From positions 415,994 through 479,993 of the forward strand of contig VXSK01000002.1 of assembly GCA_009838035.1 (NCBI GenBank): a DNA stretch of 64,000 nucleotides, written 5' to 3'. The notes under the pieces were generated by a model. That model searched no databases. It saw nothing but the letters and a program-made list of their open reading frames with translations, and was not told the DNA's origin. How positions within the stretch are numbered: the stretch's first letter is position 1; every line of letters starts with the position of its first letter. Origin of the DNA: Gammaproteobacteria bacterium. Lineage in GTDB: Bacteria; Pseudomonadota; Gammaproteobacteria; Steroidobacterales; Foliamicaceae. Shown one piece after another: positions 15,861-45,371 of the stretch. A program made the translations under genes and the position numbers.

Positions 15861-17198
15861 GTGATTTCGCAGCGCATCCGCGTTTGCTGGGGCACCGGCG
15901 CGCTGGGCGTGGCGCTGCTGATGAATGCGGTCAGCGTGCTGGGACTGTTCTACCTGGTCAACGTCTTGGGAATCGATCCGCTTCTTGCCGGTGCGCTGAT
16001 CTTCCTGACCAAACTCCTGGACGTGGTCAGCGACCCCATCGTGGGTGGCTGGAGCGACCGGGTGAAGACGTCGGTCGGCCGGCGGCGGCCGTTTCTCCTG
16101 GCCGGCGCATTCGTGTCCGCGCTGGCGTTCGTGCTGATCTTCACGACTCCGGTCTTCGACTGGAAGTGGCTGACTGCGAGCTACGTTTTCTTGGCCCTGT
16201 TGATGTATACGGTCGGCTATACGCTGTTCAACGTTCCCTACATGGCCATGCCGGCGGAAATGACCGACAGCTACCACGAACGTTCGGCGATTCACGGCTA
16301 TCGCATGGTGTTCATCGCTAGCGGCGTGTTCCTCGCCACTTCGATCGCCCCGCTGGTCCTGGAAAATCTGGGGAGAGAGAACTGGGACGCGTACGCCGTA
16401 ATCGGCGCGGGCGGCGGAGCCGTCATCCTCGCCGCCATGCTGATCACCTGGTTCGGCACGGCCGGCGCGCGCTTCACCGACGCGGGCGTCGAGCGGATCA
16501 ACGTCTTTCGGCAATTCCGCCCCATTCTCGGCAACCCGCATTTTCTGCGGCTGATCGCGGTAAAGGCGGCGCAGCTGATCGGCATCGCATCCTCGCAGGC
16601 GACCGTGGTGTTTTTCGTCAGCTTTTATCTCAAACTCCCGCTGACCGTTCTTTTCTACTACGGCATCGTGGTCACCATCGTGTCCACCTGCAGCACGCCG
16701 CTGCTCGTGGCCATTTCGAAACGCATCGGCAAGCGCGAGACCTACCTGCTGGCCGCATTCTGCTACCTGGCCGGCGTATCGAGCTGGATGCTGGCCGGGC
16801 CGGGCGAACCCTTGCCGCTGATCCTGGCGCGGGGCGCGATCATTGCGGTTGCGGCGAGCGGCAACATCGTCATGGCCATGTCGATGCTTACCGATACGAT
16901 CGAATTCGATTCCAGCCGGACCGGAATCCGGCGCGAAGGCGTGTACACGGCCGTCTACAGCTTTGTCGAGAAAGTCACTTTCGCCACGGGACCGTTGATC
17001 GTGGGCTGGGCCCTGCGGGTGGCCGGTTTCGAACCGGGCCTGCCGGAAATTCAACTGTGGACGCCGGAAGTATCGAGGGCCCTGCTGCTCGGGATGTCCT
17101 ACGTCCCGACGTTCATGGGGTGTGTGGCAATCTTGCTGCTGACCCGCTATCGTCTGACCGACAAGGATCTTGCGAAACTGAGGGCCGCGTCATCATGA
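15861..17198 (+). CDS. MFS-type glycoside-pentoside-hexuronide (GPH) family cation symporter
   Basis: 12-TM profile with a GPH signature region (LLDVVSDPIVGGWSDRVKTSVGRRRPFLLAGA). GTG start. Confidence 0.8.
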   Translation: MISQRIRVCWGTGALGVALLMNAVSVLGLFYLVNVLGIDPLLAGALIFLTKLLDVVSDPIVGGWSDRVKTSVGRRRPFLLAGAFVSALAFVLIFTTPVFDWKWLTASYVFLALLMYTVGYTLFNVPYMAMPAEMTDSYHERSAIHGYRMVFIASGVFLATSIAPLVLENLGRENWDAYAVIGAGGGAVILAAMLITWFGTAGARFTDAGVERINVFRQFRPILGNPHFLRLIAVKAAQLIGIASSQATVVFFVSFYLKLPLTVLFYYGIVVTIVSTCSTPLLVAISKRIGKRETYLLAAFCYLAGVSSWMLAGPGEPLPLILARGAIIAVAASGNIVMAMSMLTDTIEFDSSRTGIRREGVYTAVYSFVEKVTFATGPLIVGWALRVAGFEPGLPEIQLWTPEVSRALLLGMSYVPTFMGCVAILLLTRYRLTDKDLAKLRAASS

Positions 17199-18256
17199 AC
17201 AACACGCTGCAACCGAAACTCCGCCAGCGCGGTCGCGCTTCCGTCGATTTCCTGGCCCACGTATTTCACGGCACGACCGGAGTGCGAAAGGGCGTCCAGG
17301 AGGAACTGAGCACCCGCTTCGGTGACGGGTCGTCCCTGCCGGACGACCTCGACGAGCGCCACCAAGCCGTCACCGGCGTCCTGTCCAGTGAACCGGGCTA
17401 CCGAGTGCAGCAAACGATCGGCGAATGGCATTCGCGCCAGCACGGACTGATCGCGATGAACGCGTTCGAGGAACTCAAGCCGGGCGTGACCGAACTGCTC
17501 GCGCGTTACGACGAAGGACCGTCGCGGCTCGTTGCCGACGAGGACTTCAAGGTTCCTGACTATTTCGATGGCGTGGAGATTCACCGCACCCGCGGCGGAT
17601 GGGACGGGCATCCCTACATGGGTTTCGTTCATGGCGAGATCGTCCACAGGCTGATCGTGGACGCCACCTATCCGGGCGGCATTTTCACACAGCGGCGCAT
17701 GGTGGCCGGGCTGGCGCCCAAGGAAAGCTACGGCCGCATTCTCGAGATGGGCTGCTCCACCGGGCACTTCACACGGGCGCTGGCCGAGACCTATCCGGAC
17801 GCGGAAATCACCGGAGTGGACGTTTCGATCCGCACACTGGAGCACGCGCTGCGCACCGGCAACTCCTGCGGCTACGGCTGGCAACTGTATCTGCGCGCCG
17901 CCGAGGACACCGGCTTCGACGACGAGCACTTCGACCTGGTCACCTCGTACATCCTTCTGCACGAAATGCCCGCCGACGCGATCCGGGACTCCTTTGCCGA
18001 GGCCTACCGGGTGCTGAAGCCCGGCGGCGACCTGCTGATGAGCGACGTCGCGCGCTACGCGCACCTGAACAAGGTCCAGGAATGGCAGGCCGACCAGCTC
18101 GCGCGTTTCGGCGGCGAGCCGTTCTGGCGAGAGTCCGCCAGCCTGGACCTGGTCGCGGCGCTGGAGGACGTCGGTTTCGAGGAGGTTGACGGTCGCGCGA
18201 TAGGCAATCAGGGTTATCCCTACCCCTACGTCGTGACCGCGCGTAAGCCCGGATGA
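17195..18256 (+). CDS. Class I SAM-dependent methyltransferase with ~170-aa N-terminal extension (module copy 1)
   Basis: Motif I ILEMGCSTGHF; further blocks ITGVDVS, DLVTSYILLHEM and LKPGGDLL. The N-terminal extension ends in FKVPDYFDGVEIHRTRGGW. ATG 17195 overlaps the symporter stop (ATGA). Confidence 0.85.
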   Translation: MNNTLQPKLRQRGRASVDFLAHVFHGTTGVRKGVQEELSTRFGDGSSLPDDLDERHQAVTGVLSSEPGYRVQQTIGEWHSRQHGLIAMNAFEELKPGVTELLARYDEGPSRLVADEDFKVPDYFDGVEIHRTRGGWDGHPYMGFVHGEIVHRLIVDATYPGGIFTQRRMVAGLAPKESYGRILEMGCSTGHFTRALAETYPDAEITGVDVSIRTLEHALRTGNSCGYGWQLYLRAAEDTGFDDEHFDLVTSYILLHEMPADAIRDSFAEAYRVLKPGGDLLMSDVARYAHLNKVQEWQADQLARFGGEPFWRESASLDLVAALEDVGFEEVDGRAIGNQGYPYPYVVTARKPG

Positions 18257-18543
18257 ACGACGACCCCAGGTCCTTCAACAATCCCGACCGCCCGACGCTC
18301 ACGGCGGACGACATGCCTGGCGTGGGCCAGGCCGTAATGACGCTTACGCACGAGCTCTACGTCCTGATTGACCGCCTCGCCGCACTGGAAGCGGTGCTCG
18401 AGCGCCATGGCCTCAACGTCGGCACGGAAATCGAAACCTTCAAGCCGGATGCGGAACAGCAGAAGCAACTCAACGAGCGCGGCCGCGCCCTGGTGGCCCG
18501 CGTTACCAACGCCCTGGCCGGAAAATCCGACCCGCTGCCCTGA
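18253..18543 (+). CDS. Small helical partner protein of the methyltransferase (module copy 1), unknown family
   Basis: 96 aa, with its start overlapping the methyltransferase stop (ATGA). The core HELYVLIDRLAALEAVLERHGLNVGTEIETFKPDAE aligns without gaps to two other small ORFs in the window, each next to a paralogous methyltransferase. Confidence 0.7.
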   Translation: MNDDPRSFNNPDRPTLTADDMPGVGQAVMTLTHELYVLIDRLAALEAVLERHGLNVGTEIETFKPDAEQQKQLNERGRALVARVTNALAGKSDPLP

Positions 18544-18555
18544 CCGCCTCCCGTT

Positions 18556-19722
18556 CTAGAGCGGTTCGGTTGCGGGATCGTAGTGGGAAAGGCCTAGGGT
18601 TTCCTCGGTGACTACGGGCCTTCGGGCCAATTCGTCCGGGTCCTGCTGCATCAGGCGCTCGCCCCCGTGAAGGGACTCGCGGTGGATGACGGTCACGCGC
18701 TCCAGGCGGGCGTTCTCGTAGCGACGCAGCGCCTCATCGGCCCCTTTGAACTCGATCAGCGATCGGCATAGGATCACCGCGTCCTCGATCGCCATCGCGG
18801 CGCCCTGGCCCAACCAGGGCAGCATCGGGTGGGCGGCGTCGCCCAGCACGGTAGCCCGGCCCTTGACCCAGCGAGGCAGGGGTGGACGCGAAAAAAGGCC
18901 CCACTTGTGGCAGCGCGTGCCGGAAAAAGCTCCAAGCACAACACGAGCGTCCTCGTGAAAGTCGGAAAAGACGCCACGCACCGAACCGATATCGCCGGTC
19001 TGCGACCAGCCTTCCGCGGTCCAGTTGTCCGCCCGCGAGAATGCCACGAAGTTCTGCAATGCCCCGTGGCGTACGGGGTAGCGAACGAACATCCGGCCCG
19101 GCGCCACGAACACCATGGAACCGGGGCGGGACTGTTCCGCGCCCAACTCGTCCCGGGTCACCAGGCCCCTCCAGGCCACGAAGCCGGAGAACTCGGGCGC
19201 CGGTTCGGAGAAGACCTCGCGGCGCACGGTGGACTTGAGCCCGTCGGCGCCGACCAGCAAATCGGCGGCTGCCTGCGACCCGTCGGCAAAACCCAATACA
19301 TAAGCACTCGCCGAATCGACCGAAACGGCCGTCAGTTCCCTGTCCAGCACCAGCGCATCAGGCTGCAGCGTGGCCAGTCTTTCGCGCAGAAGATCATGCA
19401 GATCGGCGCGATGGGCCTGCAGGTATGGCGCGCCCAGTTGCTCGCGGGTGTTGTGGCGCCGGAAGTTCACCAGCACCTTGCCGTTGGCGTAGTGGCGCGT
19501 GACCTGGGTCGGCGGCTCGTCGGCCAGCGCCTCCAGTCGCTCGCCGATGCCCAGGTAACGAAGTCCCTTGACGGCGTTCGGCGACAGCGAAACGCCGGCG
19601 CCGATCTCCCTGAGCTCGGGCGCCTGCTCATAGACGCGCAGCCGCTGGCCCGCGCGGGCCAGCCCCAGCGCCAGAGCCAGGCCGCCGATGCCGGCGCCGA
19701 CAATCGCAATTTCTTCCGCCAC
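18556..19722 (-). CDS. FAD-dependent aromatic-ring (group A flavoprotein) monooxygenase, salicylate/3-hydroxybenzoate hydroxylase-like
   Basis: N-terminal GxGxxG (IAIVGAGIGGLALALGL), DG motif (LVGADGLKSTVR) and C-terminal GDAAHPMLPWLGQGAAMAIEDA. Confidence 0.85.
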   Translation of the reverse strand: MAEEIAIVGAGIGGLALALGLARAGQRLRVYEQAPELREIGAGVSLSPNAVKGLRYLGIGERLEALADEPPTQVTRHYANGKVLVNFRRHNTREQLGAPYLQAHRADLHDLLRERLATLQPDALVLDRELTAVSVDSASAYVLGFADGSQAAADLLVGADGLKSTVRREVFSEPAPEFSGFVAWRGLVTRDELGAEQSRPGSMVFVAPGRMFVRYPVRHGALQNFVAFSRADNWTAEGWSQTGDIGSVRGVFSDFHEDARVVLGAFSGTRCHKWGLFSRPPLPRWVKGRATVLGDAAHPMLPWLGQGAAMAIEDAVILCRSLIEFKGADEALRRYENARLERVTVIHRESLHGGERLMQQDPDELARRPVVTEETLGLSHYDPATEPL

Positions 19723-19728
19723 GGGTTG

Positions 19729-21312
19729 CTAGATGCCGAGGGCGCCGGGATTGATCAGCCCCGAGGGATCCACCTGCCGCTTGACGGAGCGCAGCAACTC
19801 CAGGGCCCCGGGGTCGCGGTCTCTCGCATACGGGTAGGCGCGGCCGATCTGAAGGTGCACCGCGCCATGGCGGTACATGAGCTCGATCAGATCCACGCGC
19901 ATCCGCTCCACAAGCTCCCGGCCCTCGGGGTTCGCCCGGCCCTCGCTCGCGACGCCTTTCATTTCTTCCGGAAGATACCGGCGATGGTAGGAAAGCCACT
20001 CGTCATCCCAGTAAATCACCACCTCCCAGAGGAACCCGGCCCTGGCACTGGTGCTGTACACGACGAATGCCTGCACGCTCTTCTCTTCGCACTCTCCCCG
20101 AATACCCTCTACGTATTGCAGGTACTCTTCATGCAGGCCCACGGCACCCGAAAACGGAACGATCGCATGCAGGGGCAACAGCCGGCGGCCAGTGGGGCTC
20201 ACGATCATCGGGGCCGGAAACGGGGCCGCGCGCGCATACTCGGCCATGGTATTGGCCACTTCAATGCCCCGATCACCGACCGCCCTGCGTATCCGTCGCA
20301 GATTCATGCGCAGTTCCGCCGCGTCCGCCCCTTCGGTCAGGAAGTTCAGCAGGTACTTGGAGGCGTTCAGGAACCGGCGCCCGCCCATGACCACCCGCAG
20401 TCCCTTGCGCAGGGCCTGTACGGGCCCTGAAGCGGCGCGCATGATGGTGAATAAGTTTCGTGCGTCCTGCTTCAGCTCGGCCCGGCCCGCGGCCTGCCGA
20501 ATCAGTTCGGTCTCAGCGCCGAACACCTCGGTGGCGAGGCCGCTGCGGGACACGCGCCGAGTCGCCTCCACGAGTTGGGAAAAATCATCGAACGAGAAAC
20601 TCAGGCCCTCGCCGGCAGCGGGACGCGGCTCCAGCTTGAGCGTCACCGCCGTCTTCACTCCCAGGGCGCCCGCGTCGCCGCAGAAGAGCCCGGTGAGGTC
20701 CGGGCCGTATTCCCGGAAAAAGGAACTGTGCTCCGGCTGCCCTCCGGAACCGGTCACCAGCACGCTGCCGTCACCCAGCACGACTTCCAGCCCCAATGCA
20801 GCCGAAACCGATGGCCCGTGCCTTCCCGAGCCGAAAGTGACCGCCCCCTGCGACATGGCGCCGCCGACGGTCGAAAGCCGGCCGGACATCGGCCCCCAGA
20901 ACACCGACCTCAGCCCGTGTTCGGCTAGTTCCGCATCCACGGCGGACCAGGTGCATCCGGCCTCCACCGTGGCGTACAGATCGTGCGCATTGATCTCGCG
21001 CACCGCGTTGAGGCGGCCGGTGTCCAGGACGATGGATCGCTCGCGATCAGGCAGAAAGGCGTCCGTGTACGACATGCCGCCGCCCCGCACAAACGTCGCC
21101 GTTGCGTGCGCATGGCAGGCCCGCAGCACGGCCTGCACTTCCTGCGTGGAACCGGGGCTGACCACGGCCAGCGGCATCTCGACGCTGCGGTAAACGTCCT
21201 GCGAAGCGAGTTCCCTCGCTTCCTCCGACGTGGCCGCGTGTTCCGGCCCGACCGCCTCGATCAGCGCATCGATCAGCGCCGCGCCGTCGGCGCCCGGGCT
21301 ATCGCGGCGCAT
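19729..21312 (-). CDS. FAD-linked oxidase (PCMH/VAO-type FAD-binding domain)
   Basis: FAD_binding_4-like N-terminal half (VVSPGSTQEVQAVLRACHAH...FVRGGGMSY; ATVEAGCTW; STVGGAMSQG) with a long C-terminal substrate/cap domain. It starts 3 nt after the upstream methyltransferase stop. Confidence 0.8.
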   Translation of the reverse strand: MRRDSPGADGAALIDALIEAVGPEHAATSEEARELASQDVYRSVEMPLAVVSPGSTQEVQAVLRACHAHATATFVRGGGMSYTDAFLPDRERSIVLDTGRLNAVREINAHDLYATVEAGCTWSAVDAELAEHGLRSVFWGPMSGRLSTVGGAMSQGAVTFGSGRHGPSVSAALGLEVVLGDGSVLVTGSGGQPEHSSFFREYGPDLTGLFCGDAGALGVKTAVTLKLEPRPAAGEGLSFSFDDFSQLVEATRRVSRSGLATEVFGAETELIRQAAGRAELKQDARNLFTIMRAASGPVQALRKGLRVVMGGRRFLNASKYLLNFLTEGADAAELRMNLRRIRRAVGDRGIEVANTMAEYARAAPFPAPMIVSPTGRRLLPLHAIVPFSGAVGLHEEYLQYVEGIRGECEEKSVQAFVVYSTSARAGFLWEVVIYWDDEWLSYHRRYLPEEMKGVASEGRANPEGRELVERMRVDLIELMYRHGAVHLQIGRAYPYARDRDPGALELLRSVKRQVDPSGLINPGALGI

Positions 21313-21315
21313 TGC

Positions 21316-22380
21316 TCAGCCGGGCTTGGTGGCCAGCGTATTGAGAAGAAACGTGTTGGTGGTTTCCTTACTGACGTCCTCGAATCCGACCTTATCAAGC
21401 AGGGCCGCGAAATCGAACGCACCGAATGCCTGGGAATACGGCTCGCAGTTGTAGCGCGCGTCGAACACCTTCCACATCCAGTTCGGGGTGGGAAACACAG
21501 TGGAATTGGGCGTATCGATCACCGTGAGTGTGCCGCCCGGGCGCAGCACTCTCAGCATTTCGCGGACGATCGGTTCGAAGGTGTGCTCGGGGACCTCGTG
21601 AAACAGTATGTAGGCAAGCACCGCGTCGAAAGAATCGTCGTCATGTTGCATGTTCTCCGCCAGGGCCTGCTGAAAATGCACGTCCAAGCCCATATCGGTA
21701 GCGCGCATGTGCGCATAGCGAAGCATGGGCAGGGCCACGTCCAGTCCCCAGACCTCCGCCTCGGGGTGCCGCTCCTTCAGCACCGTCGTGCATTGCCCGA
21801 TCGAACAGCCGAGGTCCAGGATTCGCCGGACCTGCCCGTCCGCCGGCAGCCGCATGTCGTCCACGCAGGCTTCGTGAATTTCATCCTTGTCGTTGTCGCC
21901 CTGGTAGAAGACGCGGGTGCCGTGATAGAAGACAAAGCCCGCCAGGTTGTCGCCGCAATAACCGCCAGGCTGCAGGTGGATGTCCTCGCAGGCCGACTCC
22001 GGCACGTGGAAGTCCGGATCGCAGTGCAGGCGACCGGGGTTGCGTTCTTCGGCCTCCGTCAGTCGGCCTTCCCAGAATTCGCGATCGGCCGCGTACGAGT
22101 CCTGCAGCTTCTGCCAGGCAAGCTGCTGTTGGCTGCGCATGACCCGCTTCCAACCGGCAACCGCCGGGCTCCGATCGATTTCCGGCGCAAGCTGTGCGTA
22201 CTGGTCCGAGTCAATCACCGCGGGCATGCCGGCTTGCGCGGCGATGCCGCCAACCTCGCCGGCGATTTCGGGAAACCACGACCGTATCGCGAAGTTGCGG
22301 ACCTCGGTCATGTACTCCATGTGGCTCGCGTCCTCCCTCCTCGGGGGCTGGGGATGCTTGCCGGGGTTTCTTTGTTCCAT
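21316..22380 (-). CDS. Class I SAM-dependent methyltransferase with N-terminal extension (module copy 2)
   Basis: Motif I ILDLGCSIGQC; further blocks VWGLDVALPMLRYAH, DAVLAYILFHEV and LRPGGTL. The extension block is FHVPESACEDIHLQPGGY. ATG 22380 (MEQRNPG) has AGGAAAG upstream. The listed start 22416 is also possible. Confidence 0.85.
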   Translation of the reverse strand: MEQRNPGKHPQPPRREDASHMEYMTEVRNFAIRSWFPEIAGEVGGIAAQAGMPAVIDSDQYAQLAPEIDRSPAVAGWKRVMRSQQQLAWQKLQDSYAADREFWEGRLTEAEERNPGRLHCDPDFHVPESACEDIHLQPGGYCGDNLAGFVFYHGTRVFYQGDNDKDEIHEACVDDMRLPADGQVRRILDLGCSIGQCTTVLKERHPEAEVWGLDVALPMLRYAHMRATDMGLDVHFQQALAENMQHDDDSFDAVLAYILFHEVPEHTFEPIVREMLRVLRPGGTLTVIDTPNSTVFPTPNWMWKVFDARYNCEPYSQAFGAFDFAALLDKVGFEDVSKETTNTFLLNTLATKPG

Positions 22381-22449: not shown

Positions 22450-22767
22450 CTAGCCGTCGGCGCGCATGGTGCGAAGCGGGTCGAGCAAACGACTCACCAG
22501 GGCAGCCAACTCCTCCTGCCGGCCCTGCGTATCGGACTCGGAATGGGCTTCGATTTCCTCGGGCGCAACCAGGCCCTTGGAATGCAGCAGCGACTCCAGC
22601 GCACGGCGCCGGTCCCGCTCGATCCAGAGCTCGCCGCCCAGGACGATCACCGCTTCCAGCAGGCGGTCCATCACCGGATGAGGAAGAAAGTGCGGCTCCT
22701 CGCCGGGGCCCGGCAGACCGGCGCGCTCCACCTGCGCCCGGGACAGTTCGTCGTGTTTCGAATTCAT
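22450..22767 (-). CDS. Small helical partner protein (module copy 2), unknown family
   Basis: 105 aa counted from Met50 of the listed ORF, preceded by GGGGAGG. The core GELWIERDRRRALESLLHSKGLVAPEEIEAHSESDT aligns with copies 1 and 3. In this copy it lies upstream of the methyltransferase. Confidence 0.65.
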   Translation of the reverse strand: MNSKHDELSRAQVERAGLPGPGEEPHFLPHPVMDRLLEAVIVLGGELWIERDRRRALESLLHSKGLVAPEEIEAHSESDTQGRQEELAALVSRLLDPLRTMRADG

Positions 22768-22804: not shown

Positions 22805-23734
22805 TCAGCCCGCCTTCTGCGCCGCCATCGCGCGCTTGAACGCTTCGTACTCGTTGATGTCGGTGCGCCGATCACGGCTCCAGGCGGTCGCAAAACCCGT
22901 GGGGAAATCGCCATCGCCGTCCCGGTAGCCGTCTTCCGACCACAAGACGGGAAACAGCGGTCCCCCGGGCGGCTCCCCTTCGATCATCTCGTCGAAACTG
23001 ACACCTGCCAGGTTCACGCAGTCCGGCCTTGGATGCCAGCGAATATCGTCGCCGAAGACTCGAATGGACAACGCGATCCGCCAGTCGTCCGCGTTGTTGC
23101 CGTGCGAGTAGTGCAGCGTCCACGGATGCACGATCAGGATATCGCCGGGTTCCATCGCCCATTTCAGAAAGTGGTTGGCGGGATCGGCGCGGAGTTTTTC
23201 TCCATCCGGATGCGGCACGCGGTCGTCCGGCCTCTCCATCTGGCGCGCATTGGGCGAGAACAGCCAGTAGCGCACGTCCTGGCTCTGCGAACCGGCAATG
23301 CACTCCAGCGAATTCTCTTCGGCGATCCGCGTCAGAGGCACCCATATCGAAGGCACCATCTTGCCGACCGTGGGCCAGCCCATCCGGTCACAGTGCCATA
23401 TCGTGGTCTTGCTGGAGCGCGGAGGCTTGACGAAAAACTCGTCAAAGAAAAAGCGCACCATGCTCGACCTCATGACCCGGGCCGCCGCTTCGGCCACCGG
23501 CGATTCGAACACGAACTTGCGGAATTCCGGCACCTTGCGCGACATGTAGCGACCGGGATACGTCGGCAGCAGTCCGACATCCTCGTTGTCTACGGCGATC
23601 CGCCTGGCAGCCGGAATCAGCGAATCGATCCAGCGCCGATCCAGTATGCCCCGCAGACATACGACTCCGTCGCGTTCGTAGATTTCTATTTCTTCACGGG
23701 TAATGGGCCGGCACGGTTCGGGCAGTGTGGTCAT
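22805..23734 (-). CDS. Phytanoyl-CoA dioxygenase (PhyH) family Fe(II)/2-oxoglutarate dioxygenase
   Basis: ITREEIEIYERDGVVCLRG at the N-terminus, an H-x-D in TTIWHCDRMGW and a distal His in ILIVHPWTLHYSHGN. Confidence 0.8.
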   Translation of the reverse strand: MTTLPEPCRPITREEIEIYERDGVVCLRGILDRRWIDSLIPAARRIAVDNEDVGLLPTYPGRYMSRKVPEFRKFVFESPVAEAAARVMRSSMVRFFFDEFFVKPPRSSKTTIWHCDRMGWPTVGKMVPSIWVPLTRIAEENSLECIAGSQSQDVRYWLFSPNARQMERPDDRVPHPDGEKLRADPANHFLKWAMEPGDILIVHPWTLHYSHGNNADDWRIALSIRVFGDDIRWHPRPDCVNLAGVSFDEMIEGEPPGGPLFPVLWSEDGYRDGDGDFPTGFATAWSRDRRTDINEYEAFKRAMAAQKAG

Positions 23735-26236: not shown

Positions 26237-27526
26237 CTAATCCAATACCGCTCCGTACAAGGATGTGCGCAGGGCCATCTCCAGGTCGTCCTGGCCAGGG
26301 CCAAGGTACTGGGTAAGCGCCACCGCAACGATGGCGTTTTCCGGATCGACAAGATACGTGGTGTTGGCGAGACCGTCCCATTTGAATTCGCCCTGACCGC
26401 CGGCGATGGCGTGACCGCCCCCTTCGGCGCGCACGCCGATGCTCAGGCCCCAGCCATAGCCGTTGAGCCGGGTCCACGGATCGTTGTCGGCAAAGCGTCC
26501 CTGGGCGTACCAGTTGAGCGGGCCCTGGTCCGGGGTGAGGTGGTTGCGGGTCATCAACGCGACGGAGTCGGTCTTGAGCAGGCGCTTGCCGTCGAGCTTG
26601 CCCCCGTTCAGCAGCATTTGCGCCACGCGGAGGTAGTCCATGGCCGTCCCGGCGAGACCGCCGCCGCCCGAGAACATGGTTTCACCGTCGCGGAAGGAAT
26701 TGATGTTGGGCACGCGTGCCGTGGCGTTGACCAATCCGCCGTCTTCGCCGGGAGCGTAAACCTCGGCCATGCGGTGCCAATCGTCGTCGGGCACCGTGAA
26801 ACCCATGTCCTTAAGATCGAGGGGATCGAACACCCGTTCCTGCAGAAATTCGTCATAGGGCCGGCCCGACCAGATCTCCACCAATCGCCCGAGCACGTCG
26901 CTGGAAAAACCGTAGTACCAGCGGGCGCCCGGCTGAAAAAGCAGCGGACGGGTGGCGAGATAATCCACGCCCTCCTTAATGGTCAAACCGGGCCACAACG
27001 TTTTCTCGAACGTCACCTCGAGAGAGGGATCGTAATCGAAGGGATAACCGAGACCGGACGTATAGGTCAGCAGGTGATAAATGGTCAGCGGCGTGGCCTG
27101 AGGTTCGGTCTCCGTGCCTTTGCGGTCTTTCAGCACCGGCGTGTCGGCGAAGGCCGGGATGTACTTCGAAACCGGATCGTCGAGCTTGAACCGGCCCTCT
27201 TCGTAGTTGATCATCACGGCGACCGTAGTGATGGTGCGCGTCATGGAGTAATAGCGAAACAGGGAGTCCGTCTCCATGGGCAGGCCTTCTTCCCTGTTGC
27301 GGAACCCTGCCGCCTTGAGGGCGACCAGTTTGCCGTCCTTGGCCACTGCCCACACCACGCCGGCACGCCGGTCAGTCTCCACCAGCGCGGTCATGGCCTT
27401 CTCAAGGTGCTCCAGGGCCAGGGGAGACAGACCCACGTCCTGCGGGTCCGCCGGCTCCATCGCCACGGAAACGCCTGTCGCAGCAAGAGCGCAGACAAGC
27501 GTGAGAAGTGTCAGCAGGCGTTTCAT
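26237..27526 (-). CDS. Secreted serine-hydrolase/beta-lactamase-fold (PF00144-like) protein, paralogue A
   Basis: Signal peptide MKRLLTLLTLVCALAATGVSVA, then EstB/AmpC-like blocks (FRYYSMTRTIT, LLTYTSGLGYP, FKWDGLANTTYLVDP). Note S-x-x-R where S-x-x-K is expected. Confidence 0.75.
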   Translation of the reverse strand: MKRLLTLLTLVCALAATGVSVAMEPADPQDVGLSPLALEHLEKAMTALVETDRRAGVVWAVAKDGKLVALKAAGFRNREEGLPMETDSLFRYYSMTRTITTVAVMINYEEGRFKLDDPVSKYIPAFADTPVLKDRKGTETEPQATPLTIYHLLTYTSGLGYPFDYDPSLEVTFEKTLWPGLTIKEGVDYLATRPLLFQPGARWYYGFSSDVLGRLVEIWSGRPYDEFLQERVFDPLDLKDMGFTVPDDDWHRMAEVYAPGEDGGLVNATARVPNINSFRDGETMFSGGGGLAGTAMDYLRVAQMLLNGGKLDGKRLLKTDSVALMTRNHLTPDQGPLNWYAQGRFADNDPWTRLNGYGWGLSIGVRAEGGGHAIAGGQGEFKWDGLANTTYLVDPENAIVAVALTQYLGPGQDDLEMALRTSLYGAVLD

Positions 27527-27545
27527 GATCCGCTCCGTAACGAAC

Positions 27546-28829: not shown

Positions 28830-28871
28830 GGTTTTGATCCTTGAGGTTTCTTTCTCGTGCAATATCCGGCG

Positions 28872-38003: not shown

Positions 38004-40061
38004 TCAGGAATCTGAAGGCGTAATCAGGATGTTGCCGTATTCGTCCACCTGCCCCTCGTGAGCAGGGAGAATCAGCGTGGTCGAGTCCATCTCCAGAACG
38101 ATGGCCGGGCCGTTTATCACGTTGCCGGCCTTCAGTTTGGAGCGGTCATACAGCATGGCTTCCTGCATGCCGCCATCGACGTAGATTTCGTGCGTGACCA
38201 TTTCGGCGGCTGCAGGGCTGGCGTCGCCCTGGGCAACCCGTAATGCGCGCACCACCGTGGGCTTGCCCTCGGATACGGCACGCAGATTGACGAGCTCCTT
38301 GTCTTCGGGAAGTGCGAAGGTGAAAAGTTGCTCATGCATCTGATCGAATCTGTCTCCGATCACATCCAGGCCCTGCTGCCGCAAGTCGTCCAGTTCGAAA
38401 TCGACGGTCAGCAGCAAACCCTGTCCGTGGTAGCGGATGTCCGCCTGGTAGCTCAGGGTCTGGTCACTGCGCGGAATGCCCTCCTCGTCCAGTGCCTGTG
38501 AAGCCTGCTCGGCAAGGTCCGCGAAAATATCCGCCGCTTCTTCGGCCTTGGTGCGCCCGAATCGCCGGATGAAGGTTCGCGAGGCTTCGTTGCGCACCCG
38601 CGTGGTGGCGTCGCCGTAGGCGCACAGCACGCCAGGCCCCGGAGGAATGATGACCGGCCAGGAACTCATGAGCCTGCCCAGCGCGTTGGCGTGCAAGGGG
38701 CCGGCTCCGCCGAAGGCGATCAGCGCGAATTCGCGCGGGTCGTGGCCCTGCTCCACCGATACCAGCCTCAGGGCGCCGTACATGTTCTCGTTCACCAGGC
38801 TTACGATGCCCGAGGCCGCCTCCATCAGCGAAAGCCCCAGGGCGTCGGCGATCTTCTGCACGGCGGCTTCGGCCGCGCCGCGGTCCAGCTTCATGTCGCC
38901 GCCAAGTCGCACCTCCGCCGGCAGGTAGCCGAGCACCACGTTGGCGTCGGTAACCGTCGGCTCCTCGCCACCCTTGGCGTAGGCCGCCGGTCCCGGATCG
39001 GCGCCGGCGCTCTGCGGTCCGACGCGCAGCGCGCCGGTGAGCTCCGGAACGTGGGCGATGGAACCGCCCCCGGCGCCCACGGTGCGCACGTCCACCGATG
39101 AAGCGCGCACGGTCACGTCCCCCACGGTGGTCTCGCGCCTCAATTGCGCCTGACCGTCCTGCACGAGCGCCACGTCGGTGGACGTGCCGCCCATGTCGAA
39201 GGTCAGCAGGTTGTTGTGATCGGCCTGCGAGGCAATCCAGATGGCGCCGGAAACGCCGCCGGCCGGGCCGCTCATCAGCAGGTTGACCGGGACGGCCTCG
39301 GCCGCGTCCGCGGAGGCCAGACCGCCGTCGGAGCGCAGCACGTGCAGTTGCACACCGCTCATCGTGTCGTTGAGCTGCTGCTCGAGGTTGCGTACGTAGG
39401 TCGCCACCTTCGGGCGCACATAGGAGTTGGCGACCGTGGTGATCGTGCGCTCGTATTCCTGCATCTCCGGAACGACTTCCGATGACAGCGACACCGGAAC
39501 GCCGGGGAGAACGCGTTCGGCGACCTCACGGACCTGCTGCTCGTGCGCCGGGTTGGCGAAGGAGTTGATCAGCGACACGGTCAGCGCTTCCACGCCCTTC
39601 CCGGCCAGCTTCTGCAGTTCCGCCTCCAGGGACCCGACGTTGAGTTCGTGCACCACCGATCCGTCGGCGCCCACGCGCTCGTCCGCTTCGATGGTCAGCG
39701 CCAGCGGCGCGATCGGCAGGCTCTTGTTGTAGATCACCCATCCGCCCAAGCCGCCCGGCACGAAGGAACGGGCAATCTGCAGTACCTGCCGGTAGCCTTT
39801 GGTCGTAACCAGCCCTACCTTCGCGCCCGTCCCCGTGAGGATGGTATTGGTAGCGACCGTGGTCCCATGCATGACATGAGTGATGTCCCCGGGATCCACG
39901 TCCGCGTCGCCGCAAACCCGGTCGATGCCGTTGGACACGCCGATCGACGAATCCTCCGGCGTGCTGGGGACTTTTGCGGTGTACATCTCCCCCGACTGCT
40001 CGTTAACCAGGAGCAGGTCGGTAAAAGTACCGCCCACATCCACGCCCAAGCGAAAGCTCAT
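38004..40061 (-). CDS. hyuA: Hydantoinase A/oxoprolinase-family subunit
   Basis: 685 aa starting FRLGVDVGGTFTDLLLV, an ASKHA-fold N-terminus. LLTFDMGGTSTDVALV is a second HyuA-typical block. Confidence 0.85.
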   Translation of the reverse strand: MSFRLGVDVGGTFTDLLLVNEQSGEMYTAKVPSTPEDSSIGVSNGIDRVCGDADVDPGDITHVMHGTTVATNTILTGTGAKVGLVTTKGYRQVLQIARSFVPGGLGGWVIYNKSLPIAPLALTIEADERVGADGSVVHELNVGSLEAELQKLAGKGVEALTVSLINSFANPAHEQQVREVAERVLPGVPVSLSSEVVPEMQEYERTITTVANSYVRPKVATYVRNLEQQLNDTMSGVQLHVLRSDGGLASADAAEAVPVNLLMSGPAGGVSGAIWIASQADHNNLLTFDMGGTSTDVALVQDGQAQLRRETTVGDVTVRASSVDVRTVGAGGGSIAHVPELTGALRVGPQSAGADPGPAAYAKGGEEPTVTDANVVLGYLPAEVRLGGDMKLDRGAAEAAVQKIADALGLSLMEAASGIVSLVNENMYGALRLVSVEQGHDPREFALIAFGGAGPLHANALGRLMSSWPVIIPPGPGVLCAYGDATTRVRNEASRTFIRRFGRTKAEEAADIFADLAEQASQALDEEGIPRSDQTLSYQADIRYHGQGLLLTVDFELDDLRQQGLDVIGDRFDQMHEQLFTFALPEDKELVNLRAVSEGKPTVVRALRVAQGDASPAAAEMVTHEIYVDGGMQEAMLYDRSKLKAGNVINGPAIVLEMDSTTLILPAHEGQVDEYGNILITPSDS

Positions 40062-41014: not shown

Positions 41015-41051
41015 CGAAATGCCGTCCCCCTCAAACCAAGGCAGCGTATTC

Positions 41052-41062: not shown

Positions 41063-41079
41063 TGTTCAAACTTCATCAT

Positions 41080-41113
41080 GGCCCGGCCCCGGAAACAAGC
41101 GGGGCCGGGCTTT
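41080..41113 (+). promoter_or_regulatory. Terminator-like hairpin plus T4 in the 5' leader of the CoA-transferase operon
   Basis: GCCCGGCCCCG-gaaacaag-CGGGGCCGGGC gives an 11-bp GC stem, followed by TTTT. It ends 25 nt before ATG 41139. Confidence 0.4.
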
Positions 41114-41138
41114 TCGCACGATAAGGGGAACCACGAAC

Positions 41139-42341
41139 ATGACGGACAAGACCGGCCCGCTGGCCGATCTGAGGCTGATTGAACTCGGGGCGCTGCTGGC
41201 GGGCCCGTTCTGCGGGCAACTGATGGCGGATTTCGGCGCCGAGGTGATCAAGGTGGAAGCGCCGGACCGGCCGGATCCGATGCGTGACTGGGGCCAGGAG
41301 AAAGCCCACGGAATGTCGCTGTGGTGGCCGGTGATTTCCCGGAACAAAAAGGCGATCACGCTGAATCTTCGCGAGAAAGAGGGCCAGGATATCCTCAAGG
41401 AACTGGTCGCCCAGGCCGACTTCCTGCTGGAGAACTTCCGGCCGGGAACGCTGGAGCGCTGGAACCTGTCCTGGGAGGAACTGCACGACATCAATCCCGC
41501 GCTGATCCTGATACGCGTGTCCGGCTATGGGCAGACCGGCCCCTATTCCTCGCGGGCCGGCTACGGCGCGATCGGCGAGGCCATGGGCGGATTGCGCTAC
41601 GTAGCCGGCGATCCCTCCACTCCGCCAAGCCGCGTGGGCATCAGCATAGGCGACCAGCTCGCGGCCACCTTCGCCTGCATCGGGGCCCTATCCGCCCTGC
41701 ATCACCGCGAGCGCACGGGCGAAGGGCAGATCGTGGATTCCGCGATCTACGAGGCGGTGCTCAACATGATGGAATCGCTCGTCACCGAATACCAGCAGGC
41801 CGGCTATGTCCGCGAGCGCACCGGGTCCATTCTGCCGCGTGTGGCGCCGTCGAACGTCTATCCCACCAGGGACGGTACCTACATCCTGATCGCGGCCAAC
41901 CAGGACAGCGTTTTCCGGCGCTTGAGCGCGGCCATGGGGCGGCCGGAACTGGCCGACGATCCCCGCTACTCCAGCCATGCCGCGCGTGGCGAGACGCAGA
42001 CGGAACTCGATGAGCTTATCGCGGAATGGACCGCGACCAAGGACGCCGCCGAGCTGGAGGCGCTGATGGACGAGAGCGGCGTCCCGTCCGGCAAGATCTA
42101 CCGGGCGCCGGAAATGCTCGAGGACGCGCACTTCAAGGCACGCGATGCGATCGTTTCGGTCATGCACCCGAAGTTCGGCGATCTGAAGATGCAGAACGTG
42201 GCGCCCAAGCTGTCGCTGACGCCCGGGCGGATACGGAACCCGGCGCCGGAGATCGGACAGCACAACGACGAAATCTACCGGGGCCTGCTCGACTACGACG
42301 ATGACAGGCTCGCCGGACTGAAGGAACGGGGGATTATCTGA
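41139..42341 (+). CDS. Family III CoA-transferase (CaiB/BaiF family)
   Basis: LADLRLIELGALLAGPFCGQLMADFGAEVIKVE at the N-terminus, then ENFRPGTLERW. ATG 41139 is in frame with the listed ORF 40695..42341. Confidence 0.85.
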   Translation: MTDKTGPLADLRLIELGALLAGPFCGQLMADFGAEVIKVEAPDRPDPMRDWGQEKAHGMSLWWPVISRNKKAITLNLREKEGQDILKELVAQADFLLENFRPGTLERWNLSWEELHDINPALILIRVSGYGQTGPYSSRAGYGAIGEAMGGLRYVAGDPSTPPSRVGISIGDQLAATFACIGALSALHHRERTGEGQIVDSAIYEAVLNMMESLVTEYQQAGYVRERTGSILPRVAPSNVYPTRDGTYILIAANQDSVFRRLSAAMGRPELADDPRYSSHAARGETQTELDELIAEWTATKDAAELEALMDESGVPSGKIYRAPEMLEDAHFKARDAIVSVMHPKFGDLKMQNVAPKLSLTPGRIRNPAPEIGQHNDEIYRGLLDYDDDRLAGLKERGII

Positions 42342-42345
42342 AATC

Positions 42346-42969
42346 ATGGTGGAACTCGACCAGGACTACAGCCAGGCCGGTTTCGGCGGCTCGATCCAGC
42401 CCGGGGCCAGGCCCGCGCTGCTGATCATCGACTTCGTTCAGGCCTACCTGGACCCCGAATGCTCGCTCTACGCGGGCGTGGAGGAAGAACTGGCCCAGGC
42501 GGTGAACCTGCTGGGCGAATGCCGCAAGGCCGGCATACCCGTTTTTCACACCTGCGTGGAATATGACGCCGCCGGGGTGGAGGGCGGCGTGTTCTACCGC
42601 AAGGTGCCGGCGCTGGCCAACCTTGTGAAGGGGTCGCCCTATTGCGCTTTCGGCGACGGGCTGGAGCCGGCCGAGGGCGAGGTGGTGATCGTCAAGAAAT
42701 ACCCCAGTGCGTTCTTCGGCACGCACCTGGCGGCCACGCTGTCTTCGCTGGGAGTCGATACGCTGCTGATTTGCGGATTGACCACCAGCGGCTGCGTACG
42801 CGCCTCGGCAGTGGACGCGCTGCAGTACGGCTACATTCCGATCGTCGTTCGCGAGGCCACCGGCGACCGTGACGAGCGGCCGCACGAGGCCAACCTGTTC
42901 GACATCAGCAAGAAATTCGGCGAGGTCATCGGCATCGATGACGCCCGCCGATACCTGGCATCGTTATGA
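42346..42969 (+). CDS. Isochorismatase-family cysteine hydrolase (N-carbamoylsarcosine amidase/RutB-like)
   Basis: Catalytic-triad context: LLIIDFVQAY (Asp), IVKKYPSAF (Lys), GLTTSGCVRAS (Cys). Confidence 0.8.
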   Translation: MVELDQDYSQAGFGGSIQPGARPALLIIDFVQAYLDPECSLYAGVEEELAQAVNLLGECRKAGIPVFHTCVEYDAAGVEGGVFYRKVPALANLVKGSPYCAFGDGLEPAEGEVVIVKKYPSAFFGTHLAATLSSLGVDTLLICGLTTSGCVRASAVDALQYGYIPIVVREATGDRDERPHEANLFDISKKFGEVIGIDDARRYLASL

Positions 42970-43829
42970 TCGGCCCGATCAGTTGCGTGACGATCGCCGC
43001 GCCCGACCTGGGCGCGATGGAAGAGGCCTACGAGCTTCTGGGCTACCAGTCGACCGGCGGCGGACGGGTTTCGGGGGAGCTGGCGAAATTCTGGGGCGCC
43101 GAGGCGGTGGAAGGCGCGCAGTTCCTGCTCATGGCGCCGGCAACCACCACCGGATTTCATTTCCGGTTCGTGGAGCAGCCGGAAACGGAAGGCTACGCGG
43201 CCTATCGATGCTGGGGCTGGAACGCGGCCGAACTGATGGTGCAGGACACCGATGCGCTGGAGAAACAACTCCTCGGCACGCCCTTCCACATCCTGGGGCC
43301 TCCCGCGGACCTGTCCATCACGGACGCCATCCGCGCCATGCAGGTCCAGGGACCGGCCAAGGAATTCCTGTACCTCACCATGTTCAAGCGGAGGACGGAA
43401 TTCGACGTGCCCGAGGCCGTGGATTTCGTCGACCGCACCTTCATCGTGATCCTCGGAGGGCCTTCGGTCGAGATGATCGGCGACGCCTGGGGCGAGCGCT
43501 TCGAACTCAGCTACGGCGAACCGCGTCCGGTGCGAATCACGGTCATGGGACAGGTCTACGGCCTGCCGTACGATCACCGCTTCATGCTGAGCACGATGTC
43601 CCTTTCCGGAAGCAACCTGATCGAACTCGACAGCATGCCGGAAACCGCCGAGCCGCGACCGCAGCGGGACGGCTGGCTGCCGCCGTCGATCAGCATGGTC
43701 AGCTTCGTTTCCGATTCGCTCGGAGAACACACGCTGAAGGACCAGCCGGGCGCACCTTATTACGGCCGCGAGGCCGGCATCTGGCGCGGTCCGGTAGGCG
43801 AGTGGGTGGAGCTCATCGCGCCCGTCTGA
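42966..43829 (+). CDS. Hypothetical two-domain protein, VOC (glyoxalase/dioxygenase)-like
   Basis: MIGPISCVTIAAPDLGAMEEAYELLGY resembles a VOC beta-alpha-beta start, and the length fits two modules. The start overlaps the upstream stop (ATGA). The family call is tentative. Confidence 0.45.
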   Translation: MIGPISCVTIAAPDLGAMEEAYELLGYQSTGGGRVSGELAKFWGAEAVEGAQFLLMAPATTTGFHFRFVEQPETEGYAAYRCWGWNAAELMVQDTDALEKQLLGTPFHILGPPADLSITDAIRAMQVQGPAKEFLYLTMFKRRTEFDVPEAVDFVDRTFIVILGGPSVEMIGDAWGERFELSYGEPRPVRITVMGQVYGLPYDHRFMLSTMSLSGSNLIELDSMPETAEPRPQRDGWLPPSISMVSFVSDSLGEHTLKDQPGAPYYGREAGIWRGPVGEWVELIAPV

Positions 43830-43875
43830 GCCGTGCTATTCTCCATTCAGGCTCCTTGAGAGGGAGGAATTCCAA

Positions 43876-45006
43876 ATGTTTCGAAACGTTCACGCCCTGA
43901 CGCCCGACGCCAATCACGACGAAGCTTCCCGCATGGACTTCGTCCGTGCTTTCCGGGCCCATCTCTCCGGCACGATCATGCCCGGCAACTTCTCCCTCTA
44001 CGAAGAGAAGATCAAGCCGGCCATCGAAAAGGAAACCGGACGTCCGCCGCAGCATCGCGACGAAATTCGCAAGAAGATGATGTCGGAACCGTATTACCAG
44101 CTGTGGAGCGCGATGACCCGCCGCAGTCAGGAAATGATGTGGGACGCCACGGTGGACACGGTCGAGCGGCAACTTCCCGACATGATCGAACGCTTCCGGG
44201 CCACGCACGGGAACGCCGGCGGCAGCCTCGAGCTGAACCCGGACCTCGAAATTCCGCGCTACCACACGGTGCACGACATTCACATCCAGCCGGGCGGCTA
44301 CCACACCGACCAGGTTGCCGACGACATCACGGCCGGCGCCCTGTACGAGACCGGCCTGCAGATGTACATGGCCGGAGCCTGGGGGCCGGAAGGGGATTTC
44401 CTGGGTCACATGCTGTGCAACGGCATGCGCGGAATCTGGCCGGATTTCCAGCCGAAACGCATCCTGGACATGGGCTGCGGCGCCGGCAACAGCACCCTGC
44501 CCTGGGGCAAGGTATTCCCCGATGCGGAGATCCATGCCATCGATGTCGGCGCACCCATGCTGCGCTACGCCCACACCCGGGCGGAGTCGCTGGGCGTTGC
44601 GGTGCACTTCAGCCAGCAGAACGCCGAATGCACCGACTACGAGGACGGCAGCTTCGACCTGGTCGTATCGCACATCATGCTGCACGAGACTTCCAAGAAG
44701 GCCCTGCCGCGCATCTTCGCCGAGACCCGCCGGCTGCTTGGCAGCGGCGGCCGGATGTTGCACTTCGACATCCCGCGCGGCGACACGCTGTTCGACCAGT
44801 TCATGCACGACTGGGAGAGCTACAACAACAACGAGTCCTTCGCCCGCTGCATGACCGACATCGACCTGGTCGCCGAAGCGGTCAAGGGCGGCTGGCCGGC
44901 GGACGAGGTGGGACTGGAACTCATGAAGTCCAACCTGGACGTCACCCAGCGCAACTACTCCCGGGACGAAATGAGCTTCAAGTCGCTGGCGGGAATTCGC
45001 GCATGA
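43876..45006 (+). CDS. Class I SAM-dependent methyltransferase with N-terminal extension (module copy 3)
   Basis: Motif I ILDMGCGAGNS; further blocks IHAIDVGAPMLRYAH, DLVVSHIMLHET and LGSGGRML. The extension block is LEIPRYHTVHDIHIQPGGY. A strong RBS (GAGGGAGGA) lies upstream. Confidence 0.85.
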   Translation: MFRNVHALTPDANHDEASRMDFVRAFRAHLSGTIMPGNFSLYEEKIKPAIEKETGRPPQHRDEIRKKMMSEPYYQLWSAMTRRSQEMMWDATVDTVERQLPDMIERFRATHGNAGGSLELNPDLEIPRYHTVHDIHIQPGGYHTDQVADDITAGALYETGLQMYMAGAWGPEGDFLGHMLCNGMRGIWPDFQPKRILDMGCGAGNSTLPWGKVFPDAEIHAIDVGAPMLRYAHTRAESLGVAVHFSQQNAECTDYEDGSFDLVVSHIMLHETSKKALPRIFAETRRLLGSGGRMLHFDIPRGDTLFDQFMHDWESYNNNESFARCMTDIDLVAEAVKGGWPADEVGLELMKSNLDVTQRNYSRDEMSFKSLAGIRA

Positions 45007-45371
45007 GCGCAGGCGAGGAAGCGCCCCGCCTGCGCCGCACCGCCAGGGGGAAACGGCCGCGCTACTTTTCCGACCCGGCAACCGACCGGCTCCTGGGGAT
45101 CCTGATGTCGCTGATCGGCGAGGTGTCGGTGCTGCGCGACCGTCTGGACAGCGTCGAGCGCCTCATCGAGAAGGGCGGCCTGTTCAAGCGCGAGGACATC
45201 GACAACTTCCTGCCCGATGCGGAGGCCGAAGCCCAGCGCGAAGACACGCGCCGGCGCTACGTCGCGCGCGTGATGCGGGTCGTGCAGAACGAGATGGAAG
45301 AAAAGACGCCGGTGGCCGCCATGCCGCCGGTGGCCGAAGTCCACAGCCAGTTCGAGAAAGGCAAACTCTAG
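45003..45371 (+). CDS. Small helical partner protein (module copy 3), unknown family
   Basis: 122 aa, with its start overlapping the methyltransferase stop (ATGA). The core GEVSVLRDRLDSVERLIEKGGLFKREDIDNFLPDAE aligns with copies 1 and 2. Confidence 0.7.
   Translation: MSAGEEAPRLRRTARGKRPRYFSDPATDRLLGILMSLIGEVSVLRDRLDSVERLIEKGGLFKREDIDNFLPDAEAEAQREDTRRRYVARVMRVVQNEMEEKTPVAAMPPVAEVHSQFEKGKL

Follow-up and report, generated by a model that had tools for sequence, protein, structure and literature searches.

A recurrent pair of methyltransferase and small helical protein, putatively a two-subunit enzyme, in a sponge-associated gammaproteobacterium

The 64,000-nucleotide stretch of gammaproteobacterial DNA analysed here (contig VXSK01000002.1, positions 415,994 to 479,993; hereafter the window) carries three copies of a two-gene module, each composed of an S-adenosylmethionine (SAM)-dependent methyltransferase (MT) and a member of a family of small helical proteins (SM); types 1, 2 and 3 denote the subtypes of the three copies. 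Judging from the sequences, each pair may constitute a two-subunit SAM-dependent methyltransferase for small molecules, in which the helical partner binds the MT and either stabilises or activates it or completes its substrate site, a reading that we hold to be somewhat likelier true than false. The public contigs that encode identical proteins are scaffolds from sponge metagenomes, and related metagenome-assembled genomes (MAGs) are labelled Gammaproteobacteria or Candidatus Foliamicus.

The first module consists of MT1 (353 residues; 17195..18256, plus strand) and S1 (96 residues; 18253..18543, plus strand), of which MT1 is both an open reading frame (ORF) of the window and a gene call on the public contig. 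MT1 matches the MT family hidden Markov model (HMM) over its full length with 407 bits, and S1 matches the SM family HMM with 108 bits. In the second module, which lies on the minus strand, S2 (105 residues; 22450..22767; 141 bits) is located upstream of MT2 (354 residues; 21316..22380; 347 bits), a type-2 member of the MT1 family. The third module on the plus strand is composed of MT3 (376 residues; 43876..45006; 586 bits), which belongs to type 3, the most widespread subtype, and its type-3 partner S3 (122 residues; 45003..45371; 142 bits). Independent gene callers recover all six on the corresponding public contigs, and when the window is searched with the two family HMMs, MT and SM each come to exactly three copies.

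An earlier note made from the letters of the window had described these six ORFs as three paralogous pairs that share class I motifs, an N-terminal MT extension and a gap-free SM core, with two copies coupled through ATGA overlaps and the third inverted, and the description is borne out in each of these points. The three MTs are 26-27% identical in a three-way alignment, with pairwise BLASTP E-values of 1e-29 (MT1/MT2) and 1e-23 (MT1/MT3), and S1, S2 and S3 are 35-36% identical, with E-values of 4e-13 (S1/S3) and 4e-8 (S1/S2), all far beyond chance. The BLASTP alignments of the MTs begin near residue 63-70, about 100 residues before the Rossmann core starts, and homology thus includes the N-terminal extension. 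The SM core aligns without gaps. Both 4-nt overlaps are present in the sequence (ccggATGAacg for MT1/S1 and cgcATGAgcg for MT3/S3), whereas S2 precedes MT2 across a 69-nt spacer, each gene having its own Shine-Dalgarno-like site. The stop of S3 also overlaps by 4 nt (45368-45371) the stop of a convergent 2Fe-2S ferredoxin gene (45368-45688, minus strand).

The linkage of the two genes was assessed from both sides in other genomes. From the SM side, one genome per species was scanned with a type-3 subset of SM as query, which biases the sample towards type 3. The scan yielded 80 loci from Gamma- and Alphaproteobacteria, Acidobacteriota, Binatia, Thermodesulfobacteriota, Anaerolineae and Cyanobacteria; the proteobacterial loci belong to Steroidobacteraceae, Woeseiaceae, Rhodospirillaceae and Sphingomonadaceae, and the cyanobacterial ones include the cultured Nostoc sp. 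ATCC 43529. A full-length MT directly adjoins the SM in 79 of the 80, and the exception is cut by a contig end, leaving 79 of 79 testable loci, drawn from about ten phyla or classes. From the MT side, an independent metagenome collection was drawn upon, and among the pooled full-length MTs with enough flanking sequence (n=174), 161 have an SM within 450 nt. The small ORFs thus adjoin homologous MTs in other genomes, as had been supposed.

The arrangement within the pair is highly regular. Of 172 pairs, 171 are co-directional, with MT followed by SM in 134 and SM followed by MT in 37, and the median gap is 5 nt when measured with the start codon nearest the stop. The 4-nt ATGA overlap occurs in 45 of the 134 MT-then-SM pairs, 20 of which are closely related Foliamicus-type loci. 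In addition, Steroidobacteraceae and other Gammaproteobacteria often have tandem SM-MT-MT-SM arrays on one strand, with a separate SM for each MT; examples are the loci L029, L030, L033, L036, L038, L042, L046, L051, L061 and L073. Directly downstream of three distant MTs (in a Henriciella MAG, a 4.7-Mb contig and a Binatia MAG) lies an unannotated ORF of 93-111 residues that aligns with S1, S2 and S3. The MT of the Henriciella MAG, an alphaproteobacterium, shares 58% identity with MT1; its partner shares 54% with S1, along with an insertion specific to type 1. Similarly, a type-2-like pair in locus L176 keeps the SM-then-MT order. The MT and SM subtypes co-duplicate and co-diverge as pairs. 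Together with the linkage from both sides and the changing contexts described below, this agrees with the proposal of the earlier note that the pair is a portable two-gene unit.

The MTs belong to a family without a specific name. Pfam matches of MT1, MT2 and MT3 are confined to generic class I models (Methyltransf_25, 11, 12, 31 and 23) and to residues ~180-300, with 74-78 bits against Methyltransf_25 (cut-off 27) and 63-69 bits against Methyltransf_11 (cut-off 21.2) for all three; the match of MT1 to Methyltransf_25 (1.5e-20) covers residues 182-278 only. Motif I reads ILEMGCSTG, ILDLGCSIG and ILDMGCGAG in MT1, MT2 and MT3, respectively, and the acidic residue at the end of strand β2 lies in GVDV, GLDV and AIDV. 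Across 40 MT homologues, Gly200, Gly204 and Asp223 are invariant or nearly so. By motifs and predicted fold, MT1, MT2 and MT3 appear to be intact class I Rossmann-fold, SAM-dependent methyltransferases. Throughout the family, conservation extends to the N-terminal ~190 residues, among which Pro58, Pro127, His136, Gly140 and Gly154 are invariant, and the family profile, which includes this extension with its H-x-Q-P-G-G-Y motif, matches the three MTs with 347-586 bits from HMM positions 4-6 to 352-378. Word-limited searches gave a family size of more than 1,100-2,300 full-length members (350-400 residues). The dN/dS ratio of MT3 is 0.08 over 20 Foliamicus-like orthologues.

The AlphaFold2 model of MT3, built as a single chain from 40 homologues, has a pLDDT of 90.6 and a pTM of 0.90. 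It predicts four helices (residues 14-34, 36-54, 61-68 and 72-109) before a conserved loop region, which holds the invariant His136 and Gly140 of the D-I-H-x-Q-P-G-G-Y block, followed by two more helices and the Rossmann core from residue 195. Structural similarity search against the PDB using Foldseek matched the Rossmann core with a probability of 1.00 (TMq ~0.4), the neighbours being Rv2258c, plant phosphoethanolamine N-methyltransferases (PMT), NovO/CouO, RebM, MitM and CysG/BelI. All of these matches lie in the core, and the search returned no solved counterpart of the N-terminal domain; likewise, a PDB sequence profile search gave matches only from profile position ~150 onward. Judging by other small-molecule methyltransferases, the ~190-residue N-terminal part probably caps the active site.

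More specific identities for the MTs were tried and rejected. Public pipelines label some of these proteins “UbiE/UbiG”, yet TIGR01934 scores 37-51 bits against a cut-off of 158, UbiG 24-30 against 103 and the PRK00216 variants 25-45 against 216-378, which speaks against UbiE, UbiG or MenG. The best NCBIfam hit, CpaM, reaches 58-60 bits against a cut-off of 180, and the neighbourhoods contain no corrinoid protein gene. The malonyl-ACP O-methyltransferase BioC scores 40-58 bits against 185, and every specific NCBIfam model, including RquA and ArsM, stays far below its cut-off for MT1, MT2 and MT3. CheR and CheR_N are absent from the Pfam matches. As to an anti-phage defence methyltransferase, only the generic MT core matches the PADLOC model mad2, at profile positions 277-447 of 492.

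The SM partners are cytosolic proteins of about 100 residues whose family has no name. A profile of 32 sequences retrieved 1,643 clusters at 50% identity with E<=1e-3, of which 779 have E<=1e-10, so the small ORFs do have conserved homologues. Over the best 150 of the 1,643 cluster representatives, the near-invariant positions (S3 numbering) are Gly15, Pro18, Phe/Tyr20, Phe21, Asp23, Pro24, Asp27, Glu39 (99%), Val42, Arg46 (99%), Glu51 (97%), Arg78 (91%) and Arg88. The N-terminal segment is extended and conserved (G-K-R-P-x-F/Y-F-x-D-P-x-x-D). It is followed by a long amphipathic helix with Glu39, Arg46 and Glu51, a short turn helix and a second long helix with Arg78 and Arg88. The earlier note had proposed measuring dN/dS on the small ORFs, and for S3 the ratio is 0.15 over 20 Foliamicus-like orthologues; SM is a real protein family under strong selection. 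The AlphaFold2 model of S1, also a single chain, is a helical hairpin with a pLDDT of 75.6 and a pTM of 0.44, in which the N-terminal ~17 residues are disordered and the helices comprise residues 18-51 (long), 57-62 (short) and 67-88 (long). As modelled, a hairpin with a disordered, conserved N-terminus and a low pTM is the usual picture for a protein that takes up its fold on binding a partner.

Similarity searches assigned the SM family to no known group. S1, S2 and S3 gave nothing above threshold in Pfam and NCBIfam and no PADLOC match, and 32 members compared with Pfam at E<=5 gave only scattered sub-threshold matches (DUF2018, DUF6206, nitrile hydratase and others), which we judged to be noise. 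DUF2018, the only Pfam match of S1, reaches 21.1 bits against a gathering cut-off of 25 and appears in four of the 32 members, all of type 1. No Trm112, BMFP/UbiK or methyl-accepting chemotaxis protein (MCP) signalling domain is found among these matches, and the SM model is all-helical, so a Trm112-type activator, UbiK and an MCP-type methyl acceptor were rejected as identities. In the PDB, the best matches were at E 0.038 by sequence profile and at E 5 by Foldseek with the SM model, neither of which points to a solved relative. Neither protein of the pair therefore falls into a named or characterised family in Pfam, NCBIfam, PADLOC (for SM) or the PDB sequence and structure searches. We also found no published description of the pair in the full-text literature on two-component and accessory-protein methyltransferases, Foliamicus, pJE1 and clusters of hydantoinase and methyltransferase genes, or under the RefSeq accessions of the pJE1 pair.

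In the two-subunit reading, operon linkage and, in many cases, a start/stop overlap would keep the synthesis of SM in line with that of the MT, and SM would bind the MT as a stoichiometric subunit, most likely at the N-terminal helical cap. The bound SM may stabilise or activate the MT, or supply part of the substrate pocket, with Glu39, Arg46 and Glu51 on SM helix 1 and the conserved extended N-terminus as candidate contact or functional elements. The pair duplicates and diverges as a unit, with at least three subtypes in the window, and catabolic operons appear to have taken it up as a cassette. The companions of types 1 and 2 are a flavin aromatic hydroxylase, a PhyH dioxygenase, an aldehyde dehydrogenase, esterases and a GPH/MFS_2 transporter, whereas type 3 travels with ATP-dependent hydantoinase/caprolactamase-like enzymes and an isochorismatase-family hydrolase. 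A bolder form of this reading, which we regard as possible but rather doubtful, holds that the MT is catalytically incomplete alone, and that the SM helix with Glu39, Arg46 and Glu51, together with the R-P-x-F-F-x-D-P segment, inserts into the N-terminal cap to form the substrate site. The pairs would then represent a new and widely distributed class of small-molecule methyltransferases that are obligate heterodimers, with partners specific to the cognate MT.

Several observations weigh against a two-subunit enzyme. Thirteen of the 174 full-length MTs keep the N-terminal extension and have no SM-family ORF within 450 nt, which means that either some MTs can do without a partner in cis or a single SM is shared by two MTs. 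The latter is suggested by loci L062 and L075, where the order is MT-MT-SM and one MT has no partner of its own. The MTs without a nearby SM include those of L141-L143, L149, L150, L102 and L169; for several, as seen in L141 and L143, the downstream gene instead encodes a predicted membrane protein. Moreover, a natural MT-SM fusion was found neither in the 172 pairs nor among the best 120 matches of a concatenated MT+SM profile search, which removes the easiest support for a complex without refuting one. An apparent fusion, P0394 (429 residues), was rejected as an assembly or frameshift artefact, in which the C-terminal ~90 MT residues are out of frame and read into the SM N-terminus.

The missing fusions are also in line with an SM that functions separately in the same pathway, for instance as a metabolite-binding or chaperone-like protein, and makes no contact with the MT; catabolic operons do co-transcribe many unrelated genes. 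However, SM alone among the neighbours stays with the MT throughout, all others being exchanged, and it never occurs without an MT in the 79 testable loci. Besides, the pairwise co-duplication and the SM-MT-MT-SM arrays are hard to explain without one-to-one specificity. We regard a separate function as very improbable.

A further point against a catalytic subunit is that the near-invariant Glu and Arg residues on the exposed SM helix would equally suit a methyl acceptor. The MT would in that case be a protein methyltransferase that modifies a conserved Glu or Arg on the SM helix, as CheR does on the chemoreceptor hairpin, and the methylated SM would be a switch or regulator of the operon; SM may even be reversibly methylated and act as a metabolite-responsive switch for catabolic operons. 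The likeness is apparent on both sides, as the MT, like CheR, has a helical N-terminal domain before its Rossmann core, and SM is a helical hairpin with conserved Glu residues, its positions Glu39, Arg46 and Glu51 being 97-99% invariant on the long predicted helix. Each paralogous operon has its own pair, as is often so with regulators, the basic histone-like tails of some homologues could bind DNA, and the absence of fusions fits a relation of enzyme to substrate. By contrast, the MT matches neither CheR nor CheR_N nor any other protein methyltransferase family, SM does not match the MCP signalling domain and no chemotaxis genes lie nearby. The nearest sequence and structure neighbours of the MT are small-molecule methyltransferases (phosphoethanolamine N-methyltransferase, RebM, NovO/CouO, MitM and CysG/BelI). 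In addition, many of the operons already contain conventional regulators (IclR, a sigma-54 activator, GntR), stoichiometric translational coupling would be unusual between an enzyme and its substrate, and SM has no recognisable DNA-binding fold. Altogether, we consider it decidedly unlikely that SM is the substrate of the MT.

Lys/Arg/Ala/Pro-rich tails that resemble histone H1, 30-120 residues long and located at the N or C terminus, occur in ~13 of the 150 SM representatives (~9%), including P0364, P0358, P0308, P0297, P0244, P0251 and P0320. They suggest binding to a polyanion or a surface, and a pure catalytic-subunit model leaves them unexplained. Such tails would suit a scaffold or localiser that tethers the MT to a surface (membrane, nucleoid, polyphosphate or storage granule) or to the enzyme that acts next in the pathway, or that oligomerises it by a coiled coil, comparable to UbiK/UbiJ. 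The long amphipathic helical-hairpin architecture and the 13 MTs without an adjacent SM are compatible with such a role. In the ubiquinone metabolon, too, methyltransferases of the Methyltransf_11/25 type (UbiE/UbiG) work beside FAD_binding_3 hydroxylases (UbiH/F/I) and depend on a small helical coiled-coil factor of ~95 residues (UbiK/UbiJ), and FAD_binding_3 flavin hydroxylases recur beside the modules of types 1 and 2.

Nevertheless, the similarity to the metabolon does not extend to the individual components. The UbiE, UbiG and MenG models score 24-51 bits on MT1, MT2 and MT3 against cut-offs of 103-420, UbiE and UbiG lack the N-terminal extension, and the neighbours of the module are transporters, esterases and lactamase-like enzymes rather than quinone biosynthesis genes. 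SM matches none of the BMFP/UbiK, SCP2 and phasin families, no hydrophobic or amphipathic membrane segment is evident in its sequence, and S1, S2 and S3 have no histone-like tails in the alignment. Furthermore, the near invariance of the charged residues points to a specific contact that has been conserved, more than to generic tethering. A scaffolding role thus seems unlikely, if less so than a methyl-acceptor role, and the two-subunit enzyme remains the reading that we favour.

Among known systems, a two-subunit MT resembles in its logic the methyltransferases activated by Trm112 (Bud23, Trm9, Trm11, Mtq2/HemK2 and METTL5), where a class I enzyme is stabilised or activated by a small (~15 kDa) non-catalytic partner, and one partner fold serves several paralogous methyltransferases. 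Bud23-Trm112 is also among the structural neighbours of the MT3 core found by Foldseek. However, Trm112 is a beta-rich zinc-knuckle protein that extends the β-sheet of its methyltransferase, whereas SM is all-helical; the Trm112 partners modify RNA or translation factors, whereas the MT-SM pair sits in catabolic operons; and Trm112 is a shared hub, whereas here each MT paralogue has its own co-diverged partner. MbtH-like proteins are likewise small and cluster-encoded, bind the adenylation domains of nonribosomal peptide synthetases and are needed for their solubility or activity, and their paralogues can be cognate-specific. The analogy is one of logic only, as fold and partner enzyme are unrelated to SM and MT and share no sequence similarity with them. 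Similar to BioC/BioH, where a methyl ester serves as a protecting group, a Methyltransf_11/25 methyltransferase lies near alpha/beta-hydrolase or esterase genes, and BioC is among the best NCBIfam matches; yet BioC has neither an N-terminal extension nor a small partner, and no biotin genes lie near the module. The pair probably joins a known kind, the heteromeric methyltransferases with a small accessory subunit, as an uncharacterised MT subfamily with an unnamed partner family.

The surroundings of the three copies bear on what the module might be used for. The operon of copy 1 comprises genes for ADH, DctP, CMD, an aldo-keto reductase and a GPH/MFS_2-family symporter (15861..17198, plus strand), followed by MT1 and S1. 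The stop of the symporter gene overlaps the MT1 start by 4 nt, so that symporter, MT1 and S1 (15861-18543) are chained through two successive ATGA overlaps. In sister strain L002, from another sponge metagenome, there is no symporter gene between the aldo-keto reductase gene and MT1, and the rest of the region is collinear. The operon of copy 2, adjacent to and convergent with that of copy 1, lies on the minus strand and begins with a PhyH-family Fe/2-oxoglutarate dioxygenase gene (22805..23734), which is followed by S2, MT2, a FAD_binding_4 oxidase gene (19729-21312) and a group-A flavin aromatic hydroxylase gene (18556-19722). After the genes of this operon come those for an aldehyde dehydrogenase, an alpha/beta hydrolase and two adjacent paralogues of the beta-lactamase family (esterase type; 26237-28862, minus strand).

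Much of this gene set recurs elsewhere. The MFS_2 transporter also stands beside type-1 modules in L005 and L176, and beta-lactamase-family, alpha/beta hydrolase and aldehyde dehydrogenase genes accompany the modules of types 1 and 2 in the same two loci. L176 carries a type-1 and a type-2 pair together with FAD_binding_3, PhyH (next to the type-2 pair), beta-lactamase-type esterases, aldehyde dehydrogenase and MFS_2, and the Henriciella locus shares part of the set. As essentially the same genes surround both types in L176, and partly so in the Henriciella locus, types 1 and 2 probably act in one pathway. The statement of the earlier note that each copy sits in a different operon is accordingly right as to the three operons, but copies 1 and 2 occupy adjacent convergent operons of what is likely one pathway, which leaves two contexts rather than three. 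For the reaction itself we can offer only plausible guesses: O-methylation after flavin-dependent hydroxylation, or a carboxyl methyl ester made by the MT and later undone by the neighbouring esterases.

Copy 3 lies in a different setting. In the same operon, MT3 follows genes for a family III CoA-transferase (41139-42341), an isochorismatase-family hydrolase (42346-42969) and a conserved protein of 287 residues (42966-43829), all on the plus strand, the last of which starts within the final 4 nt of the isochorismatase-family gene. These upstream genes (41139..43829) include the recurrent neighbour clusters c3 and c11. The 287-residue protein has no Pfam or NCBIfam match; in at least 11 of 66 loci a homologue lies upstream of the type-3 module, making it a second unnamed conserved protein near the cassette. 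The operon diverges from an HMG-CoA-lyase-like gene and a hydantoinase pair on the minus strand (hydantoinase B, 36109-37989; hydantoinase A, 38004-40061). Both hydantoinases are caprolactamase-like, with best matches to CapA and CapB of caprolactamase at 546 and 207 bits (cut-offs 1000), and the pair is probably either an ATP-dependent enzyme that hydrolyses lactams or hydantoins or a carboxylase. Downstream of the module, a TonB-ExbBD energy-transduction cluster (45722 to ~52000, minus strand) contains genes for a TPR protein, two TonB_C, two ExbD and two ExbB/MotA proteins, as well as a DUF3450 gene; a homologue of the TPR protein adjoins the module in 13 other loci (cluster c7).

Hydantoinase A/B genes also stand beside type-3 modules in L006, L174 and L175 and on pJE1, a catabolic plasmid of Sphingomonas sp. 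JE1, and homologues of the module are found on Novosphingobium megaplasmids. Clustering of the neighbours in 66 loci gave isochorismatase in 14, PEP-mutase/ICL-like proteins in 15, MmgE/PrpD in 13, 4HBT thioesterase in 14, hydantoinase A in 13 and hydantoinase B in 10. Degradation of creatinine or N-methylhydantoin by hydantoinase A/B and an isochorismatase-family amidase was considered and rejected: the best match is caprolactamase-like and below cut-off, the isochorismatase matches are weak, and that pathway has no methyltransferase. Across the loci, no neighbour besides SM is constant. Because the neighbours vary while SM stays, the module behaves like a cassette placed in catabolic operons of diverse make-up that act on small organic compounds, and the neighbours in the loci examined are too varied to call one substrate.

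If the two-subunit reading is true, a defined two-subunit architecture could be assigned to thousands of genes whose present annotation is no more than “class I SAM-dependent methyltransferase”, “UbiE/UbiG” or “hypothetical protein”. The MTs would need co-expression with the neighbouring SM, which may explain why they have been uncharacterised so far. The pair is, besides, a precise marker of catabolic gene clusters of the lactamase/hydantoinase and hydroxylase/esterase types, which occur in sponge symbionts, Steroidobacteraceae, marine Rhodospirillaceae, Binatia, Acidobacteriota and the catabolic megaplasmids of sphingomonads. It holds no conceptual surprise, and represents a widespread and directly testable piece of enzymatic “dark matter”. 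For the sponge symbiont itself, three copies within 28 kb of the genome suggest that methylation is a recurring step in the processing of host- or seawater-derived compounds.

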